Source: an uncultured Bacteroidales bacterium
Lineage (GTDB): Bacteria > Bacteroidota > Bacteroidia > Bacteroidales > PUMT01
NCBI GenBank assembly: GCA_964520585.1
Contig: CAZFOO010000002.1
Span: forward strand, 9,672 to 73,671
Direction of reading: 5' to 3'
DNA: 64,000 nucleotides
Every line of letters begins with the position of its first letter. The first letter of the stretch is position 1. The notes under the pieces were generated by a model. It was not told the origin of the DNA and did no database searches. It saw nothing but the letters and a program-made list of their open reading frames with translations. Below, one piece after another: positions 26,116 through 35,193 of this stretch. The position numbers were made by a program, and so were the translations under genes.

Positions 26116-26378
26116 CACATCCTTACCTCGTCCGGTGCTTTGCAGCATTAGTTAATAGTTAACAACTATGGAAGTCTGAGAAATCCACCCGGCAGAAAAC
26201 AGGACTATCTCACAGTGAAAAGATCTTAGCAAATCCACAGCATAATGGGACCTGCCATTGCCTGCCGGGATTATGCACTGCCGGCGGCTCATTTTGTGAA
26301 TAGGAAAGTAACCCGCGAATATTTTGTGATTTAATCAACAATTATTTATCTTCGCATGCCTGCAGATTACGGCATCAG

Positions 26379-26462
26379 GCCCGGATGGCGGAATTGGTAG
26401 ACGCGCTGGTCTCAAACACCAGTGGTAGCAATACCGTGCCGGTTCGACCCCGGCTCCGGGTA
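26379..26462 (+). tRNA. tRNA-Leu (anticodon CAA), type II with a long variable arm, CCA not encoded
   Basis: Hand-folded cloverleaf: acceptor GCCCGGA/TCCGGGT, anticodon arm CTGGT-CTCAAAC-ACCAG, variable arm TGGTAGCAATACCGT, and T arm GCCGG-TTCGACC-CCGGC. Confidence 0.9.
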
Positions 26463-26464
26463 CG

Positions 26465-26502
26465 AACAACCTCCTGAAAACTTCAGGGGGTTGTTTTCTT
26501 TT
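26465..26502 (+). terminator. Rho-independent terminator after tRNA-Leu
   Basis: AACAACCTCCTGAA / TTCAGGGGGTTGTT stem (one U-G pair), a 3-nt loop, then TTCTTTT. Confidence 0.75.
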
Positions 26503-26588
26503 AGCCAGCCAGCCAACATCTACCTTCTTCGGAAATAAAGGAGTATAACAGAAGTCGCATTTAAAGATTAAAAAAATGAAATGGCTGG

Positions 26589-29500
26589 TCAAGTCTTCCG
26601 TAATCCGAGACTCTCGAAAAACCTGACAGTTTTTCTGGGAGCTTCCACAAGAATAAAAAGAAAAAGAATCAGTGTCATCAGCCATAAGACAAAAAGATTA
26701 AACCATAAGGTATTGACCTGATCATTGTTGAATATCTTTACCGAAGCATAGAAGTGTGCCCTCCCGATATTTGAATCGGGAATAAGATAAACCGGATCCT
26801 TTTTCTGAACAAGCCTTTGATCTGTTTCGTAAATCACGTTTATCTCATTCCGCCTCAGCACCATATTTGAAAGCGCTTTGTTGTGATGATTCTGCCGGAG
26901 ATGGTAAAGTTCACCGGGGCCCATTTCTGATTCGAGTGTTTTATAAATGCTGTCTCTTTCTGCAGCGGCTTCCCGTGCAACATTGGAAAAATGAAGGCGA
27001 AGGTAGATAAGGTAACCGGAGACTTCCTCAGCAACCATTTCTGTAAACCCGTCAACACTGATATTATCAATATATTCAAACGGCATTAATCCCGAAGCTC
27101 TTCTAAGGTAATCTATTTCATTGCGAAGAATAGTAAGGTTTTTCTCTGTTTCTTCAGTAACAGTACCCAGCCTGATATCCCTTTCAATAAGTTCAACTTT
27201 GGCAAGAAGACGGGGAATCAGGAATGATGCCTTGAAAGAAGCATCACTGTTTTGTTGTTCATACTCAAAGAAATGTTTCTGAAAATTATTACCGGCAAAT
27301 TGCTCGACGGCAAGAGCTTCAAAAGCCCACCGTGAAGCCATAAGATCTCCCACAAGCGGAACATGTATCTTATCGGTTACGCTGTCATGCAATTCATCAA
27401 ATTTCACCACGACACCCCCCAAAAGCAATTGGGGAACAAGTAAAAAAGGTACAAGGATATATATTGTAACCACTGAATTGAAAGCGGAGGATATTAACAA
27501 TCCCAGCATATTAGCAAAACATGCAGTACTAAAAAGTATTAACCAATAAGTCAAAGTCATCCCCCTGATCTCGAGAATTAAATTCCCCACAATAACAAAA
27601 GTGATCATCTGAATAGCGGAAACAAGAAACACCCAGCCCACCTTCGAGCTAAGGTAGCTAAACCAGCTAAGATTTAAGAATGATTCCCTTTCAAGAATTT
27701 TTCTGTCTTTTATTATCTCCTCCGCACTTACAGACATACCAAGAAAAAGAGCAACAATCACAGCCATAAATAGAAATGAGGGGAGATTTACATTTTCTGC
27801 AAAGATATATTCTCCTTCATACAGGTATTTGGTAAAGTAACCAAGAATAAAAGCAAGAACGGGTGCCTCAAGTAAACTGATAAGCAGGTATTGACGGTTA
27901 CTCAATTTGGATAGAAAATTTCGAATGCTGAAAATCATGAACTGGTTTTCAATGCCGGGAAGAGAAAACATATTGGGGGGCATTACATCTTTTCCGGGCT
28001 TAATGCTAATGCCTGATGCAATTTTTTCTTTGTAATATTTATACCATTTTGCAGGTGGGATCTTCCTTTTTTGGGTGTGGTGCCCCGAGCGGCTAACCTC
28101 TTTTGCTTCAACAATCTTAAGTATCTGCTCAGATGATATATTACCGCAACAATTGCACTCTGTCTGGCCGGCATTAACATGTCCGCTTATGGTTTTAAAA
28201 TATACCAGTGCTTCAAGCGGGTTCCCGTTATATATGGGATAACCTCCCTTATCAATTACCCATAGCTTATCAAGGAGTTTAAAATTGTCAGAAGAAGGCT
28301 GATGAATATTGGCAATGACCAGTTTCCCCTTCATTGCCTGCTCCTTAAGCAGAGCCATAACAATATCTGAATCAAGTGAAGACAGTCCGGAAGTAGGTTC
28401 ATCTACAAAAAGCACGGAAGGCTCCCGTAATAATTCCAAACCTATATTAAGCCTTTTTCTCTGCCCCCCGCTTATGAATTTTTTCAAAGGATTTCCTACC
28501 TGTAAATGACTAATCTCATCGAGCCCCAGATTGGCAAGCACCTTTTCAACAATTTCTACTATTCTCTCTTCCTTTAAATTTCCAAAACATAATTTTGCAT
28601 TATAATAAAGGTTCTGGTAAACTGTTAACTCCTCTAAAAGCATGTCGTCCTGGGGCACATAGCCTATCTGTCCTTCAATTCTGTCAGCATCTTTATGAAT
28701 ATCGTAAGAATTTACCAGTATCCTGCCCTTATCTGGTTTTAGCTTACCGTTTAAAACATTTAAAAGAGTAGACTTGCCCGAACCACTTACACCCATCACT
28801 CCGATCAGCTGACCCGACTCTTCAGAAAAACTAAATGGCCGGATGCCATTATCACTCAAAGGATAACGGAACTCAATATTATCAGCCGTCAAAACAATTT
28901 TTATTCCTGCATGACTCCGAAAAAACCGGGATGAAATATCAGAATAATATATGGGTGCAATTTTATCTCCCCTGATTATCCCGCCCCGGTTAAAAATATA
29001 AAACCGGTCGGTTAACAAAGGTTTTCCTTCATAATTAAGGTTATCATTTCCTTTATATCTGAAGACAAACATCCCGGTACTCCTTATAATCATAACGATT
29101 ATCTTCCCATCAAGAGCCTCTCTCTCAATGATTCTTTTCGAATTTTGATCCCGGGGCTTATTATTTTCAACCCATGCCCCTTCGAGGTCATCAGCAAGGG
29201 TTTTTTTTGGTTTTTTAATTACCAAAAGATTATGGGGATCAATATTCTCATTTTTGTCTTCCAGAATAAATGCCTTGGCATCCTTAACTTCTTCAGGAGA
29301 TATATTAAAACTGTCAGCTACCGTCCTGATAAATATACGTTCGGGTTCAGAAAAAATATTATCTTCATTTATAAATTCCAGGAGCCTTAAGAAAACAATG
29401 ATTCTCTCATTATGATGCAGGTCATGGTTAATTTGCCCGCAGATATTTATTACCTGATCCTTTAGCAGGGAATCTACCTTTGAACCTGCATCTATATTCT

Positions 29501-29690
29501 GCAGTTCGCGGGCATAAAAATCTGAATAATCGTTAAAGAGCTTTAAATATTCAACAGCAATGGATTCATCCAGATGCTGCCGCAGATAGGATAAAACCAC
29601 CATCTTACCCCGTTCAGAGATCCTTTTTTCGTTTACATTGGCTATTAATGCAAACAAATGAATCAATGCATTTAAAATTGATTCACTCAT
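26589..29690 (-). CDS. ABC transporter, fused ATPase-permease (ABCG/ABC-2-like), with an N-terminal non-ABC module and a large insert before the last TM helix
   Basis: Walker A GVSGSGKST (about aa 298), signature ISGGQRKRL, Walker B LFVDEPTSGL, then five hydrophobic helices, about 230 aa of helical sequence, and a final TM helix (LWFNLFVLWLMTLILFLFILV). Confidence 0.8.
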   Translation of the reverse strand: MSESILNALIHLFALIANVNEKRISERGKMVVLSYLRQHLDESIAVEYLKLFNDYSDFYARELQNIDAGSKVDSLLKDQVINICGQINHDLHHNERIIVFLRLLEFINEDNIFSEPERIFIRTVADSFNISPEEVKDAKAFILEDKNENIDPHNLLVIKKPKKTLADDLEGAWVENNKPRDQNSKRIIEREALDGKIIVMIIRSTGMFVFRYKGNDNLNYEGKPLLTDRFYIFNRGGIIRGDKIAPIYYSDISSRFFRSHAGIKIVLTADNIEFRYPLSDNGIRPFSFSEESGQLIGVMGVSGSGKSTLLNVLNGKLKPDKGRILVNSYDIHKDADRIEGQIGYVPQDDMLLEELTVYQNLYYNAKLCFGNLKEERIVEIVEKVLANLGLDEISHLQVGNPLKKFISGGQRKRLNIGLELLREPSVLFVDEPTSGLSSLDSDIVMALLKEQAMKGKLVIANIHQPSSDNFKLLDKLWVIDKGGYPIYNGNPLEALVYFKTISGHVNAGQTECNCCGNISSEQILKIVEAKEVSRSGHHTQKRKIPPAKWYKYYKEKIASGISIKPGKDVMPPNMFSLPGIENQFMIFSIRNFLSKLSNRQYLLISLLEAPVLAFILGYFTKYLYEGEYIFAENVNLPSFLFMAVIVALFLGMSVSAEEIIKDRKILERESFLNLSWFSYLSSKVGWVFLVSAIQMITFVIVGNLILEIRGMTLTYWLILFSTACFANMLGLLISSAFNSVVTIYILVPFLLVPQLLLGGVVVKFDELHDSVTDKIHVPLVGDLMASRWAFEALAVEQFAGNNFQKHFFEYEQQNSDASFKASFLIPRLLAKVELIERDIRLGTVTEETEKNLTILRNEIDYLRRASGLMPFEYIDNISVDGFTEMVAEEVSGYLIYLRLHFSNVAREAAAERDSIYKTLESEMGPGELYHLRQNHHNKALSNMVLRRNEINVIYETDQRLVQKKDPVYLIPDSNIGRAHFYASVKIFNNDQVNTLWFNLFVLWLMTLILFLFILVEAPRKTVRFFESLGLRKT

Positions 29691-29829: not shown

Positions 29830-29865
29830 AAAAAGCCGGCTAAAAACATAATGCCGGCCTTTTTA
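29830..29865 (-). terminator. Hairpin terminator (bidirectional-capable) between the lipoprotein gene and the ABC gene
   Basis: aaaaaGCCGGC-taaaaacataat-GCCGGCcttttt. The palindromic 6-bp GC stem is flanked by an A-run and a T-run, so a T-run follows the stem on either strand. Confidence 0.55.
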
Positions 29866-29886: not shown

Positions 29887-30717
29887 CTATTCAATTATAT
29901 CTGACCTGATATTTTCGATCTTTTCAACAAATGCGTCCAGTTCATCATTTGCCATCGGCGATTCAAGATTTTCAAGGAACTTATAAATATCTTCCAGGCC
30001 GGGATATAAAGAACTTACATAAGTATCATCTTCCAGATCATCCATGAGAGAAAGAAGTTTTTCAAGTGGCTCATCCTGCTGAAGAATTATATCAGTGATC
30101 TCAGTATTGTCCCTGGCACCAATAGCAATTTGCGAGGTAAGGTACATTCCCTCAATCCAGCTTCCGGTCATAACCAATAGAGAAAGATCGGGTCTGCGCG
30201 TTTCGGTAAGATAATTATAAGTATCAATAAACGACTCGGCAACAATATAAATAAGCGAATCTTTATTGTCAAGATTATTTTCTACTCTATCAACAAAATC
30301 CTGGTTAAAGGTTGTTGAAACATTAAGTTCATCTACAAGCTGATTGCATACCTGCAGGTACCTTCTGATGTCCTGGTTCATCTCATATGTGGCGGCATAG
30401 CTAAGGTCGGCACCATAGACTCCGAGATTTAATGCTTTACTTCTTTCAGTAAAATACTTGTCAACATTCGAAGGGGAATTGGATATTCCCAGAATATAAG
30501 GAGCACCAGCCCTTTGAAGTAATTCAACAACCTCAACGGAAGTTGGTATTGGATATTCCTCCACATCCTCAACCTGACGGGCGGTAAGTTCTTCTCTTTC
30601 CTTATTTTCGGTAATGGCACGCGATTCCCCTTCCTGCCTGCTGCCACAGGAAATACTGAATATCCCGATAAAAAAGACAGTTGCAGCCAGGTAAATTGAT
30701 CTCTTTAATGCTTCCAT
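29887..30717 (-). CDS. Hypothetical lipoprotein (all-helical, acidic)
   Basis: Signal peptide with lipobox FSISCG. No recognisable catalytic motif. Confidence 0.55.
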   Translation of the reverse strand: MEALKRSIYLAATVFFIGIFSISCGSRQEGESRAITENKEREELTARQVEDVEEYPIPTSVEVVELLQRAGAPYILGISNSPSNVDKYFTERSKALNLGVYGADLSYAATYEMNQDIRRYLQVCNQLVDELNVSTTFNQDFVDRVENNLDNKDSLIYIVAESFIDTYNYLTETRRPDLSLLVMTGSWIEGMYLTSQIAIGARDNTEITDIILQQDEPLEKLLSLMDDLEDDTYVSSLYPGLEDIYKFLENLESPMANDELDAFVEKIENIRSDIIE

Positions 30718-30912: not shown

Positions 30913-31851
30913 CTACCTCAACGAAAATTCACCTGAACCTATCTGATATCCCTCAGTATAAACATTCACCTGGTAAACGCCCGGGATAAAGCTTCCATCG
31001 TCATTATAATATATACATGCATCAATATCTATATTCTCATAATTGACATCCCGGGAAGCAGTATAGATTAATTCCTCCTCATCCACCATCACAATATTAT
31101 CGGCTGAAGTTGTCAGCACCAGACTATCAGGCCGGATAATCCGGATATAAAGCGTCCGCATCCCGGGTTCTGCTATTGCATTCCTTTTTAGGGTAAAACA
31201 AACCTGAATCTGTTCAACCCTTCCTATCCGGTCAGTTTCACGTCCCCTGCGGTTTATTGATAAAGCTTCAAGATTCTCCACCATCAACCTCGATCCAAGG
31301 TCCACTCTCTCAGAAAGTTCCTCCTTGACTTTTATTTCCTGTTCCAGTTGACTTTCGGCAACCACCGCCTGCTGCCTTACCTGCATATTTTCCTCCCTCA
31401 ATCTTATATTGTCTCTGTTAAGGGAATCAACCTGCACAATATAACTTTTCAAAACATCCCTGAGCGTTCCAAGCTCACTGCGGTACTCACTTATCCTGGC
31501 AGCACTGTTTATCCGGGTACGGTTAAGTTCTTCAATAAGTTTGGTTATTTCCTCCTGACGCGTCTCCAGTTCGGCATTCATATTCTCATTATCTGTCTGA
31601 AGGGCATCATACTCATGCGACAAATCTTCAAGTTCATTAATTAACTCAAATTTTTCCCTTGTCACCTCTTCCAGCTTAATAGCTTCCTGTTTTCTATCAT
31701 AAAGAAGCCAACCCATTACAGCAATCAGAAGCACCAGCGCTGCTGAAAGTGAAATCAATATATAGGTAAGCTTCTTACCTGTCATTTTTGGTCTTGTTCC
31801 TGATCCTTCTGTGCCGGATCTATCGATGCTCGTTCCCATTATTCTATTCAA
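30913..31851 (-). CDS. Hypothetical single-pass membrane protein with a coiled-coil and a C-terminal beta-rich domain
   Basis: One TM helix (LTYILISLSAALVLLIAVMGWLL), about 150 aa of heptad-like E/Q/R/L-rich sequence, then a beta-strand-like C-terminus. Confidence 0.55.
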   Translation of the reverse strand: MNRIMGTSIDRSGTEGSGTRPKMTGKKLTYILISLSAALVLLIAVMGWLLYDRKQEAIKLEEVTREKFELINELEDLSHEYDALQTDNENMNAELETRQEEITKLIEELNRTRINSAARISEYRSELGTLRDVLKSYIVQVDSLNRDNIRLREENMQVRQQAVVAESQLEQEIKVKEELSERVDLGSRLMVENLEALSINRRGRETDRIGRVEQIQVCFTLKRNAIAEPGMRTLYIRIIRPDSLVLTTSADNIVMVDEEELIYTASRDVNYENIDIDACIYYNDDGSFIPGVYQVNVYTEGYQIGSGEFSLR

Positions 31852-31952: not shown

Positions 31953-33176
31953 TCATTCTTCTGAGGTCTTGTCGACAGCGCTTGCAAAATAGTTGTTGAG
32001 AATTTCTGCCCCCTGAAATACTATCTTCGCGCCATCAGGTAATTTCCCCGGATTTTTGATCTCTACCATTCCATCAATGTTTATGCCAGTAATAACCTTA
32101 ATCTTCATGTATTTATTATTATGGAATGCAAAAATAAAACGGCCATCCTCACAGGTTATTGCAGAGCCGGCGGGAACCAATACTGAATCCTCCGGCTTTT
32201 TTTCATGGCTTATCCAGCCATTAAGTCCGGGTTTAAATATTTCGCCAGCAGATGCAATTACCTGATCATTAATATTGAGCCGAAAAAACCCCGTAACCAA
32301 CTGGTCTTTAGTGATAAACTGACTGATGCCGGTCAGCGTTACAGGGATTGATTTACTGTTTTCAAGTCCGGGAGTGAAAAAAAAATCATCAGATTCTTGA
32401 AACTCCCTAACATCCGAAAGGTCCATATGAGTTTCTGCCGTAAAATTGCCCGGAGAAAAAATCCCGGCTACCTGATGACCCAAATTATAAAATTTCCCTG
32501 TGCCTGAAATACATTTTATTACTGTACCCTCCAACGGAGCATAAATTTCTATCTCATCAACCATACCCGATTTAATGATGCTATCGCCGGATATGCCCAA
32601 AAATGAAAGCTTTCTATCGTATGCTTCAAGAGAAGCCAGTGCAGATTTATAATCGCGTTCGGCAATCTGAAAGCTACGCAATGATGAGGCATAATCAAGA
32701 GAAAGATCTCCTTTACGATGTAATTCCTGTTCATGATAAGCGGTCATCTCTTTTGCTTCAATAAATGCTGATTGCAGCTTGTAGAGTCCGGGATGACCTA
32801 TTACAAAAAGCGGATCGCCCTTTTTTACCTTTTGTCCCTCTTTAACCAGAATTTTATTTATAAAAGCATCCATAGGTAATGATACTCCTGAATAATTATC
32901 ATAATTTAAATTCAACCTGGCCCGGTATATCCCTTTTCCCGGAAGCACAGTGCGATACGGCTTACCGGTTACCAATTTATGCTGAATGTTCTGGACCCCG
33001 GCTGCAGGTATTTCATCCTCACCAAAATGCTCCATATCTGCAGTGTTTTGATCTGTGTTGCCGCAGGCACAGACAAATAAATATATCATGGCCAGAATCT
33101 TTAACACATAACGGGAAGGCCATTTAATGACAGGGACAGAGTACCTATTTAACATAATATTCAAGTTGAATGGCAA
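31953..33176 (-). CDS. Efflux transporter periplasmic adaptor (membrane-fusion protein, HlyD/RND-MFP-like), probable lipoprotein
   Basis: Lipoyl-like motif VKEGQKVKKGDPLFVI, a helical-hairpin region, and beta-barrel-like C-terminal domains. The start is ambiguous (33176 or 33155) and overlaps the upstream TolC-like gene. Confidence 0.65.
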   Translation of the reverse strand: MPFNLNIMLNRYSVPVIKWPSRYVLKILAMIYLFVCACGNTDQNTADMEHFGEDEIPAAGVQNIQHKLVTGKPYRTVLPGKGIYRARLNLNYDNYSGVSLPMDAFINKILVKEGQKVKKGDPLFVIGHPGLYKLQSAFIEAKEMTAYHEQELHRKGDLSLDYASSLRSFQIAERDYKSALASLEAYDRKLSFLGISGDSIIKSGMVDEIEIYAPLEGTVIKCISGTGKFYNLGHQVAGIFSPGNFTAETHMDLSDVREFQESDDFFFTPGLENSKSIPVTLTGISQFITKDQLVTGFFRLNINDQVIASAGEIFKPGLNGWISHEKKPEDSVLVPAGSAITCEDGRFIFAFHNNKYMKIKVITGINIDGMVEIKNPGKLPDGAKIVFQGAEILNNYFASAVDKTSEE

Positions 33177-34377
33177 GTTGATTATATTCGTTCAGAGCTG
33201 TGAGATATCCACGACGAATTTTATAAACATTCTTCATTGATTTAAATACCTGATCAAACTCAATATCTTCCCTTTCATATTGAAGCAGGACGGTCTCCTC
33301 TATGTTTAGAGCATTTTCCAGTGCATGTTGATTGTAATATACTATCTCTTCGTAAAGCTGATCAAGTTTATAGATAATATTGTTTATTATAATTTTCATT
33401 TCATCTCTTTTACTTTCCATTTCATAATGAGAAATGTCTTCGAGTATACGTGATTGCCTGATCTCATTGCGAAATGGCAAGGACCATAAAGGAATTCCCA
33501 AACTTATCTGCCAACCTGTAAAACCATTTAAGCCTTCGATGCTGCGGTTGAAAACCCCGGCAGATATTTCAGGGAACAATCTGGTCCGGGCAAGGGATTT
33601 GTTGAGACCGGCTATCTCGGAAAGAAGTCGGTAATACTCCGTATGCATATTATCACCTGAAAAATTTTTTTCTGTTGAAGAAAAATCAATAAGATACATT
33701 TCAAGATTTATGTCCGGCAGCAATATATCATTATCCCAGGAAATGAGTTGCCTGAGGTTATTGGCAATCATTTCTATGCCTGATTTAATCTTGGAGAGGT
33801 CTGTTTCTGCCTTTGCAGTGGTTGTTCTGATATTTAACAGCTCAATCAATTCTGTTTCCCCTGCCTTATATTGCAGCTCGGCAATCCTCTGCTTTTCCCT
33901 GAAATAGAACAAATGCCTGTCCATCTGCTTTTGCTTCTCATAAAGGTAAAGCCATCTGTACCAATACTGCTTTACCTTCATTTCGAGTTCATTTTGAGTC
34001 ATCTCCAACACTATATGATGTTGCTCCAGCTTTTTAGAATCAATCTGTTTTCTTACGAAATATGAAGGAACAGAGCCGAAGCTTTGCAAAATTTCGAGAT
34101 TATGATCATTGCGGGGAGAAAAGAGCTCTCCCTTTTGAAAAAAGGCTTCCGTTGGGGGGAGCATGGAAAGACCACCTGTTTTGCCTTTGGCAAGCTCTAT
34201 TTCCGCTTCAGCAATACGAATCGGATAATAGTTGTCAGAAGCCATTTCAAGAGCTTTGTCCAGACTTAGGAGCAAGGGATTTTGTTGAGCATAAAACCTG
34301 GCGGGCATCAACAGAAACATAAAAATTAGCAGAGCTAGGTATTTGCGCATCCCAAAAATATTTAACCTGTTGGGCAA
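33145..34377 (-). CDS. TolC-family outer-membrane efflux protein
   Basis: 410 aa with a signal peptide (possible true start MRKYLALLIF at 34350) and two-fold repeated helical/beta architecture typical of OEP/TolC proteins. Confidence 0.7.
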   Translation of the reverse strand: MPNRLNIFGMRKYLALLIFMFLLMPARFYAQQNPLLLSLDKALEMASDNYYPIRIAEAEIELAKGKTGGLSMLPPTEAFFQKGELFSPRNDHNLEILQSFGSVPSYFVRKQIDSKKLEQHHIVLEMTQNELEMKVKQYWYRWLYLYEKQKQMDRHLFYFREKQRIAELQYKAGETELIELLNIRTTTAKAETDLSKIKSGIEMIANNLRQLISWDNDILLPDINLEMYLIDFSSTEKNFSGDNMHTEYYRLLSEIAGLNKSLARTRLFPEISAGVFNRSIEGLNGFTGWQISLGIPLWSLPFRNEIRQSRILEDISHYEMESKRDEMKIIINNIIYKLDQLYEEIVYYNQHALENALNIEETVLLQYEREDIEFDQVFKSMKNVYKIRRGYLTALNEYNQLAIQLEYYVK

Positions 34378-35193
34378 CTATTTTTTTCTGCCGCGTTCAG
34401 GCTGCCCCGATTTATTTTTATAACTCCGGAACAATAGCAAAAATCCGGCGAGAATAAAAGGTATACTTAACCATTGACCCATATTAAGAGTCATTCCGGT
34501 TTCAAATTCAACCTGAACTTCTTTGATAAACTCGATAAAAAACCTTACTGTAAAAAGCAATATCAAAAAAATACTGAATAAAACCCCTTGTTTGGGCTTT
34601 CCGTCAGAACGCCAATAGAGGAAATGGAGCAGCAAGAATATCGCCAGGTACGAAAGTGCTTCATATATCTGGGTAGGATGTTTTGGCACAACTTCACCGG
34701 CCCTGACAAATATAAATCCCCAGGGAAGGTTGGTTTCAACACCATATATTTCTGAATTCATCAGATTTCCCATTCGTATAAAAAACCCTCCAAGAGCCAC
34801 AACAATACCGATTCTGTCAAGTATCCACAAAATGGGCCTCCTGATAGATTTGGAATAATAATAAAGTGCGACAGGTATCCCGATAGCAGCTCCATGACTT
34901 GCCAGTCCTCCTCGCCAAATTTTAAGTATCTCAACAGGATTGCTGAGATAGTACTCGGGTTCATAAAACAGGCAGTGCCCAAGCCGGGCACCGACTATTG
35001 TGCCAATTGCAACATACATGGTGAGTTTGTCAAGCAATTCAACTGAAATGCCTTCTTTCTTGTATACCTTAAGAAATTCCAGGTATCCGAACAAAAAGGC
35101 TGAGGCGAAAAGCAGACCATACCAGCGAATGGCAAAACTGCCAATTCTGAATACTTCAGGATCTACATTCCAGGTAATGGAAGTAAGCAACAT
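34378..35193 (-). CDS. lgt: Prolipoprotein diacylglyceryl transferase
   Basis: Polytopic membrane protein with the RGGLASHGAAIG motif and the conserved N-terminal region FRIGSFAIRWYGL. Confidence 0.85.
   Translation of the reverse strand: MLLTSITWNVDPEVFRIGSFAIRWYGLLFASAFLFGYLEFLKVYKKEGISVELLDKLTMYVAIGTIVGARLGHCLFYEPEYYLSNPVEILKIWRGGLASHGAAIGIPVALYYYSKSIRRPILWILDRIGIVVALGGFFIRMGNLMNSEIYGVETNLPWGFIFVRAGEVVPKHPTQIYEALSYLAIFLLLHFLYWRSDGKPKQGVLFSIFLILLFTVRFFIEFIKEVQVEFETGMTLNMGQWLSIPFILAGFLLLFRSYKNKSGQPERGRKK

Follow-up and report, generated by a model that had tools for sequence, protein, structure and literature searches.

Much is known about ATP-binding cassette (ABC) exporters of the ABCG type in eukaryotes, but few of those in bacteria are understood. 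Most ABCG, ABCA and bacterial ABC-2 exporters that have been characterised carry lipids, lipid-linked polymers or hydrophobic compounds, in many cases towards an acceptor outside the cytoplasm. Here we analyse a gene for an ABCG-like protein of 1033 amino acids (aa), together with the lipoprotein gene beside it, in 64,000 nucleotides of DNA from an uncultured Bacteroidales bacterium (contig CAZFOO010000002.1 of assembly GCA_964520585.1, positions 9,672 to 73,671; this whole stretch is hereafter the window). Tentatively, we read the protein as a regulated exporter of the type V fold that passes a hydrophobic envelope component, via a periplasmic stalk, to the lipoprotein; this may well be right, but we would not call it probable.

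With the eukaryotic ABCG proteins (ABCG2, ABCG1, ABCG5/8, White) and the PDR pumps (Cdr1, Pdr5), the window protein shares a nucleotide-binding domain (NBD) placed before the transmembrane domain (TMD), an ABC-2 membrane domain with six transmembrane (TM) helices, a conserved motif ahead of the TM5-TM6 loop and an extra domain at the site of extracellular loop 3 (EL3). These proteins are also its best sequence matches in the PDB. EL3 of ABCG2 has about 45-60 aa and is disulfide-bonded, whereas the loop here has about 230 aa, is helical and contains no conserved cysteine. ABCG proteins also have neither a TerB-like or FHA-like N-terminal module nor a lipoprotein partner.

Among bacterial proteins, Rv1747 of Mycobacterium tuberculosis is an ABCG-like half-transporter with a cytoplasmic regulatory module of FHA fold before its NBD. 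It is an exporter with the order FHA-FHA-NBD-TMD, treated in PMC3138270 and PMC5549992; its two FHA domains and its phosphorylation by PknF, which is encoded in the same operon and acts on threonines in a non-structured linker, are reported in PMC3138270 and PMC8339232. The window protein differs in having one truncated FHA-like sandwich without the binding residues and a TerB-like domain, and we found no adjacent kinase gene. We know of no large periplasmic insert in Rv1747 such as the one present here.

Three further groups are instructive. MacB, LolCDE and FtsEX (type VII) likewise combine an ABC ATPase with a large periplasmic domain and with periplasmic or lipoprotein partners, and the NBD of MacB is fused N-terminally. 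Their membrane domain is of the four-TM FtsX fold, and the periplasmic domain is placed between its TM1 and TM2, whereas the window protein has a six-TM ABC-2 domain with its extra domain between TM5 and TM6. ABCA1-type transporters, NosDFY-NosL, KpsMT-KpsE and CcmAB offer an analogy, as type V folds from which cargo or mechanical work passes to extracytoplasmic domains or to lipoprotein or periplasmic partners; their extra domains have no sequence or fold similarity to those described here, and the extracellular domains of ABCA proteins lie between TM1 and TM2. Finally, the TerB family (PF05099; Klebsiella TerB, PG1108, the DjlA N-domain) resembles the N-terminal bundle of the window protein in size, fold and conserved acidic residues. 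Known TerB domains stand alone or are fused to other modules, whereas here the bundle is fused to an ABC transporter and scores under the Pfam gathering threshold; our literature search found no description of a TerB domain fused to an ABC transporter.

Architecture and distribution of the ABC protein

The ABC gene, its regions and the lipoprotein gene lie as follows (evidence in brackets):

26589..29690, minus strand: ABC gene, 1033 aa plus stop codon, ATG start (open reading frame list and translation)
29256..29690, minus strand: predicted TerB-like seven-helix domain, aa 1-145, cytoplasmic (AlphaFold2, Foldseek, Pfam in homologues)
29136..29255, minus strand: variable charged linker, partly disordered, aa 146-185 (predicted local distance difference test (pLDDT), alignment)
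28905..29135, minus strand: predicted small beta-sandwich, FHA-like in fold alone, aa 186-262 (AlphaFold2, Foldseek)
28191..28904, minus strand: NBD, aa 263-500 (Pfam ABC_tran, 3e-30; motifs)
27906..28190, minus strand: NBD-to-TMD linker, aa 501-595, holding an invariant CxxC
27396..27905, minus strand: TM1-TM5 of the ABC-2 type domain, aa 596-765 (Pfam, hydropathy, ABCG2 alignment)
26712..27395, minus strand: predicted periplasmic insert, aa 766-993 (AlphaFold2, alignment, ABCG2 comparison)
26592..26711, minus strand: TM6 and Lys/Arg-rich cytoplasmic tail, aa 994-1033 (hydropathy, AlphaFold2)
29887..30717, minus strand: gene for the partner lipoprotein, 276 aa, of no known family; next to the ABC gene on its upstream side

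A preliminary description of the ABC reading frame, correct in its coordinates and quoted peptides and silent on the strand, which is the minus strand, had proposed an ABCG/ABC-2-like core with a Walker A motif near aa 298. Two results bear out such a core. Among NCBIfam models, TIGR00955 (White/ABCG subfamily, pigment precursor permease) matches best, over aa 291-807 at 3.5e-67, and a family profile searched against the PDB aligned residues 75-565 of human ABCG2 to profile positions 296-772 (8e-51), with further alignments to ABCG1, ABCG5/8, Cdr1 and Pdr5. The TIGR00955 score of 227 bits is far under the cut-off of 736, so the protein is a relative and not a member of that curated subfamily. 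Pfam places ABC_tran at aa 285-434 (3e-30) and ABC2_membrane at aa 583-768 (7.5e-20). Walker A (GVSGSGKS) is found at aa 300-307, the signature ISGG at 406, Walker B (VLFVDE) at 426-431 and the H-loop (HQP) at 463. K306, Q347 of the Q-loop, S407-G409, D430-E431 and H463 are invariant in 40 homologues. Because every ATPase motif is present and invariant, we take the NBD to be catalytically intact, and the ATPase should be active. The NBD and the TM1-TM5 block are the two most conserved regions in an alignment of 77 sequences. Judged from its sequence, the protein has the core of a Bacteroidota-specific half-transporter of the ABCG type (ABC-2, 'type V'), with the NBD before a six-TM domain; given this half-transporter architecture, the working form is presumably a homodimer.

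The linker between NBD and TMD contains a CxxC motif (ECNCCGN; CxxC at aa 512-515, 28146-28157, minus strand) whose C512 and C515 are invariant in the 40 homologues, within the family consensus ECxxCGNVNPEQIL. It probably lies at roughly the same position as the C-P...NPxDF region at the NBD dimer contact of eukaryotic ABCGs. The CxxC could be an inter-subunit metal or redox site. PF19055 (ABC2_membrane_7) matches 35 of the 40 homologues, a match that we do not assign to the linker.

The start codon is supported by conservation of the N-terminus, MSESILNAL, which is near-invariant in the 40 homologues, with M1 and E3 invariant. A protein 100% identical to the window protein is present in an uncultured Bacteroidales metagenome-assembled genome (MAG). 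There are thousands of homologues, the best 120 of which are all full length at 50-76% identity, so the architecture is not a chance product of one reading frame. The full architecture is found in about 1000 clusters at 50% identity and in at least 80 species-level genomes across Bacteroidota. For neighbourhood comparisons we used the best 80 of at least 598 relatives, from at least 600 stretches scanned in species-representative genomes. Nearly all of these 80 loci cover residue 1 to about 1030, and four end at a contig edge. They come from Bacteroidales (including Rikenellaceae, Tenuifilaceae, Marinilabiliaceae and Salinivirgaceae), Cytophagales, Flavobacteriales (Vicingaceae, Crocinitomix, Salibacteraceae), Sphingobacteriales (Sphingobacteriaceae) and Chitinophagales (Chitinophaga). 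Culturable species with the gene include Breznakibacter xylanolyticus and Labilibaculum euxinus.

Source annotation of the homologues is generic throughout, for example 'ABC-type multidrug transport system'. The three extra regions of the protein, checked against Pfam, NCBIfam and the PDB, are covered by no curated model, and we found no description in the literature of the ABC family, its domain combination, the insert, the lipoprotein family or the pairing of the two genes. This agrees with the preliminary description, which recognised no characterised family. The fold class and the cytoplasmic domains have precedents (TerB; FHA in Rv1747); for the combination, the insert, the lipoprotein family and the pairing we found neither a curated family nor a solved structure.

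Some genomes carry two ABC paralogues, namely loci L008 and L044 (JBDLJL01, MAG096) and loci L027 and L033 (JAUWMO01). In MAG096 the lipoprotein gene adjoins the L008 paralogue and not L044.

A lipoprotein gene conserved beside the ABC gene

Neighbourhood profiling across the Bacteroidota loci brought out a conserved partner that the preliminary description had missed. A gene of the lipoprotein family adjoins the ABC gene in 52 of the 80 loci, or in 52 of 71 once loci with less than 1.5 kb on either side are set aside. In 46 of these 52 the two genes share a strand, with the lipoprotein gene upstream; taking all 52 together, a median of 122 bp separates it from the ABC gene. The lipobox cysteine, Cys24, is invariant in the 52 homologues. 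Adjacency is found on all major branches of a neighbour-joining tree of 77 family members and, to judge from this spread over the whole tree, the pairing of the two genes is ancestral. Of the 1558 homologues in the lipoprotein family, nearly all lack a name or are labelled 'hypothetical protein', and the window lipoprotein had no match in Pfam, NCBIfam or the PDB. We also considered that it might be a duplicate of the periplasmic insert of the ABC protein, and rejected this, since hhalign gave a probability of 0.3%, indicating that the two are unrelated.

A small secreted protein accompanies the pair in one large clade. In 20 loci a gene for a protein of about 142 aa, with a signal peptide and containing Cys, lies between the lipoprotein and ABC genes (e.g. 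L035:9001-9426, L029:9486-9908), always together with the lipoprotein gene. It has no credible relative in Pfam, NCBIfam or the PDB, and we found no homologue of it in the window. It may be a third component of the system.

The conserved pairing bears on whether the ABC protein is simply an ordinary exporter of drugs or toxins, comparable to ABCG2 or DrrAB, with its extra domains a lineage decoration and the lipoprotein adjacency inherited synteny. The core is closest, among PDB entries, to the multidrug exporters Cdr1, Pdr5 and ABCG2, and the annotation of homologues as multidrug transport systems points the same way. However, the lipoprotein adjacency survives across orders despite the shuffling of all other neighbours, which speaks for selection on the pairing. 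Moreover, the extra 490 residues are kept at fixed length in about 1000 sequence clusters, and no regulator of the drug-pump type is linked to the gene. We thus regard an ordinary drug pump as quite unlikely.

The predicted periplasmic insert

Hydropathy places five TM helices between aa 600 and 765 and one more at about 994-1016. For aa 740-1033, AlphaFold2 (pLDDT 84.7, rising above 90 over the insert) puts helices at 994-1014 and 1017-1032. Both support the order first read from the sequence, in which five TM helices are followed by an insert of about 230 aa and one last TM helix. The ABCG2 alignment ends at profile position 772, just before the insert, and the motif RWAFEALAVEQFAGNNF at aa 787-803 resembles RYGFTALQHNEFLGQNF, which directly precedes EL3 in ABCG2 (8 of 17 identities, pairwise E 0.02). 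Beyond TM6, the tail has five Lys or Arg residues against one Asp or Glu. Given a cytoplasmic NBD, five TM helices before the insert and the Lys/Arg-rich tail, we strongly infer that aa 766-993 face the periplasm, at the position of EL3 in ABCG2. The preliminary description had likewise put the insert at the large extracellular loop of ABCG proteins, a placement that the alignment end, the motif, the TM count and the tail all favour.

The insert has three parts, namely the conserved re-entrant or external helix motif (787-803), a three-helix stalk (808-923) and a conserved membrane-proximal segment (QKKDP...GRAHFYA.VK). In the model, long helices at 808-841, 846-866 and 884-923 are followed by two short helices and small strands, and then by TM6; from their lengths, we estimate that the three long helices would form a stalk of about 5-6 nm. 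Across the 77 aligned sequences the insert is invariant in length (gap frequency 0.00-0.01), and its distal stalk helices are the most variable of the ordered regions. The membrane-proximal segment is conserved roughly like the NBD-to-TMD linker, and the pre-stalk motif is likewise well conserved.

We found no described relative of this insert. When its modelled fold was compared with the PDB by Foldseek, the matches were all generic helical bundles (best E 0.43, probability at most 0.38); a profile search against PDB sequences gave nothing credible, and Pfam gave no match, with no curated family in this region. An exhaustive phmmer search with the insert yielded 1008 clusters at 50% identity, in which every full-length match has 988-1063 aa and carries the insert at about 750-990. 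The insert is therefore specific to this architecture.

The N-terminal cytoplasmic module

An AlphaFold2 model of aa 1-290 (60 aligned sequences, pLDDT 82.9) has seven helices over residues 3-143, then a short strand and a helix, disorder at 177-183 (pLDDT below 50), and six strands at 186-241 (pLDDT 90-94) out of six or seven predicted in total for the sandwich; the strands of the NBD start at 268. Foldseek matched the helical part to Porphyromonas gingivalis PG1108 (2h5n; 132 columns, TM-target 0.55, probability 0.98), which we take to be a TerB family member. Pfam TerB (PF05099) is weak in the window protein itself (E 0.012-0.07; 13.8-16.3 bits against a gathering cut-off of 24.4). Of 40 homologues, 34 match this model at E 0.1 or better (best 1.5e-7), and precomputed PF05099 matches exist in many homologues. 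E105, D110 and E134 are invariant and E117 nearly so in 40 close homologues; in a broader sample of 39 sequences E134 alone stays near-invariant. These residues are consistent with the acidic cluster described for TerB domains. Residues 1-145 are thus predicted to have a TerB-like helical-bundle fold, and the homologue matches and 2h5n uphold the TerB-like N-terminus noted in the preliminary description. The linker that follows (146-185) is the least conserved and sole gappy region, with a top-residue frequency of 0.22 and gaps of 0.29 in the 77 sequences.

For the beta-rich part, nearly all Foldseek matches are FHA domains (43-77 columns, E 0.08-1, probability up to 1.0), among them CEP170, Rad53 FHA1, aprataxin, PNKP, DgcB, MEK1 and TIFA. 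The FHA fold is an eleven-stranded beta-sandwich that binds phosphothreonine through Gly-Arg, Ser-x-x-His and Asn residues; in the 77-sequence alignment of aa 184-264 only G214, G236 and Y248 are invariant or nearly so, and no Arg, His or Asn is conserved. Pfam found no FHA family in the window protein at E up to 5, FHA is absent among the 25 Pfam families listed for 40 family members, and a profile of the beta part matched no FHA chain among PDB sequences. In the absence of any Pfam or PDB sequence signal we rejected FHA homology at the sequence level. A fold match without FHA residues or sequence signal makes this part an FHA-like pseudo-domain and not an FHA domain, which fits the earlier remark that it occupies an FHA position and lacks the canonical residues.

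A search with aa 1-262 for other architectures, which was low in yield, returned only fragments from the same ABC family. Two variants are short at the N-terminus, P0316 (803 aa) and P0301 (777 aa); P0316 is most likely a truncated gene call, because its cluster includes a 1046-aa member.

A possible link between this module and signalling comes from genes of the SiaC family (PF09345), which occur near the ABC gene in 11 of the 80 loci, in several orders (L022, L031, L036, L041, L046, L057, L071, L076 (5282-6246), L077, L079 and L080). In eight of the 11, no more than about 600 bp separate the SiaC gene from the ABC gene, and in the remaining three the distance is 1.4-3.8 kb; the two genes usually lie on opposite strands. 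In the six loci in which DUF6272 is visible as well, SiaC is paired with it or fused to it. Together the two look like a SiaB/SiaC-like phospho-switch pair, and it is possible that they are linked to the FHA-like domain. We found no SiaC homologue in the window, and no kinase domain in the 14 window reading frames scanned (17.5-39.1 kb) or in the scanned representatives of recurrent neighbour clusters.

The ABC protein could alternatively be a mechanotransmitter or sensor, in which, as in FtsEX, LolCDE/MacB or BceAB, ATP hydrolysis moves the stalk to activate, release or sense the lipoprotein and nothing crosses the membrane; in a variant, stalk and lipoprotein would report envelope status to the TerB/FHA-like module. 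A stalk fixed in length and weakly conserved in sequence resembles a lever or spacer, the lipoprotein is a dedicated partner, the cytoplasmic module resembles a signalling module, and the phospho-switch genes lie by the ABC gene in those 11 loci. CcmAB and NosFY, which are of ABC-2 type, are moreover thought to do mechanical work in the periplasm. However, the membrane domain is conserved like the NBD and aligns with bona fide ABCG exporters through TM5, known mechanotransmitters have the FtsX fold and not ABC-2, and the SiaC link is confined to 14% of loci, where the genes are mostly on opposite strands, and does not extend to the window. We consider a mechanotransmitter unlikely, and prefer to read the protein as an exporter.

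Gene neighbourhood in the window and related loci

The ABC gene ends a same-strand run in the window that comprises, from upstream to downstream, lgt, an outer-membrane factor gene, an adaptor gene, a gene for a coiled-coil protein, the lipoprotein gene and the ABC gene. The features around the two main genes are as follows:

34378-35193, minus strand: lgt
33145-34377, minus strand: gene for a TolC-like outer-membrane factor (OEP)
31953-33176, minus strand: gene for an HlyD/RND-type adaptor (membrane-fusion protein, MFP)
30913-31851, minus strand: gene for a 312-aa protein with a TM helix and a coiled coil
29830..29859, minus strand: GC hairpin between the lipoprotein and ABC genes, GCCGGC stem, 12-nt loop, then TTTTT (read from the sequence)
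26464..26496, no strand assigned: 15-bp hairpin between the convergent dxs and ABC genes, 93 nt past the ABC stop (terminator scan, plus strand)

The outer-membrane factor and adaptor genes overlap by 32 bp and directly follow lgt. Their presence raises the idea of a tripartite pump like MacAB-TolC, in which the insert would dock the upstream adaptor and TolC-like protein. All the genes of the run are co-oriented, the order is retained in the close relative L002, and there is no RND or MacB pump gene in the 64-kb window, where the ABC gene is the sole reading frame above 800 aa. However, an adaptor gene is normally in tight linkage with the gene of its pump, and here, in contrast to MacB pumps, the adaptor is not a conserved neighbour. 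It was found in one of the 80 related loci, as was the outer-membrane factor, and neither was found in the other 79; the coiled-coil protein was found in two, and the gene order is confined to the window's immediate relatives. No further HlyD or outer-membrane factor genes were found among the recurrent neighbour clusters with scanned representatives. MacB, moreover, has the FtsX fold, whereas the membrane domain here is of the ABC-2 type, and a terminator-like hairpin precedes the ABC gene. We therefore rejected the tripartite pump at the level of the family and regard it as highly improbable for the window protein, and the hedged analogy to MFP-docking pumps drawn in the preliminary description finds no support.

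In the 312-aa protein, a single TM helix (about aa 29-51) is accompanied by some 130 aa of coiled coil and by a C-terminal domain rich in beta structure; searches of Pfam and NCBIfam gave no family, only generic coiled-coil matches. The hairpin at 29830..29859 was missed by our consensus scan because the loop limit of that scan is 8 nt; from its sequence, it is a possible attenuating terminator. The hairpin downstream of the ABC gene is likely a bidirectional terminator. A 116-aa reading frame at 26335-26685 (minus strand), which overlaps the 3' end of the ABC gene and spans this second hairpin, is most likely spurious.

Neighbour clusters with scanned representatives are housekeeping genes that depend on lineage (carA, purH, mreB/C, argG/H, lysS; dxs and lgt in the window), and other recurrent neighbours, judged by sequence, are ksgA-like or like permeases of the MacB/FtsX type. 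The company of housekeeping genes, as opposed to a biosynthetic or defence island, suggests that the ABC family serves a core envelope function. TerB domains occur in defence islands, and we therefore considered an anti-phage system; we rejected it, as PADLOC gave generic ABC-ATPase and coiled-coil matches only and the neighbours are housekeeping genes. In one distant member, P0403 (1063 aa, ERZ1426830), a neutral/alkaline ceramidase gene (PF04734) lies two genes upstream on the opposite strand, a single case that may be coincidence in a neighbourhood that is otherwise uninformative.

Discussion

We propose, tentatively as stated at the outset, that the ABC protein and the lipoprotein work together in export. 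ATP-driven closure of the NBDs would drive a hydrophobic or lipid-like component of the envelope out of the inner membrane. The two periplasmic stalks, paired directly over the translocation exit, would then pass the component, through or along them, to the tethered lipoprotein. In one clade the small secreted protein would join the hand-off, and delivery would be within the envelope. The TerB-like/FHA-like module may gate the ATPase in response to a signal from the cytoplasm, perhaps a metal ion or a partner protein. In favour of this model we count the domain architecture with its intact ATPase motifs, the outward-facing insert at the EL3 site, the ancestral pairing with a lipoprotein whose lipobox cysteine is invariant, the third gene in 20 loci, the fixed length of the insert with its conserved proximal segment, the housekeeping surroundings, and the lipid or hydrophobic cargo usual among characterised relatives.

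Several observations weigh against this hand-off model. A poorly conserved distal stalk fits a spacer or mechanical element equally well as a conduit. The lipoprotein gene is not adjacent in 19 of the 71 loci with sufficient flanks, and in the window a hairpin with a T-run separates the two genes, so their co-transcription is uncertain. The FHA-like call for the regulatory module rests on weak Foldseek E-values (0.08 or higher) and on coverage of about half of the FHA fold. Finally, no biosynthetic genes that would indicate a cargo were found linked to the ABC gene.

A broader and more speculative proposal is that the ABC protein and the lipoprotein, with the small secreted protein in one clade, form an undescribed envelope trafficking machine found throughout Bacteroidota, in which a regulated ABCG-type extractor would move a membrane lipid, or another lipidated or hydrophobic cargo, by way of its periplasmic helical stalk to the tethered lipoprotein as acceptor. 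We think this rather unlikely as it stands.

The family described here is widespread in environmental Bacteroidota, and in it the ABCG fold gains three additions, namely a TerB-like and pseudo-FHA module, a 230-aa stalk at the 'lid' loop and a dedicated lipoprotein partner. Should the hand-off model be wrong, the family would still be a well-defined target for structural and genetic study. If it is true, the two genes would provide a handle on the transport of hydrophobic components across the Bacteroidota periplasm, and the ABC protein would be a natural example of an ABCG exit loop elaborated into a conduit. To our knowledge, both the transport of the characteristic non-phospholipid lipids of Bacteroidota and the sorting of their surface lipoproteins are poorly understood; if the trafficking proposal were true, the system would be a new route from the inner to the outer membrane in these bacteria.

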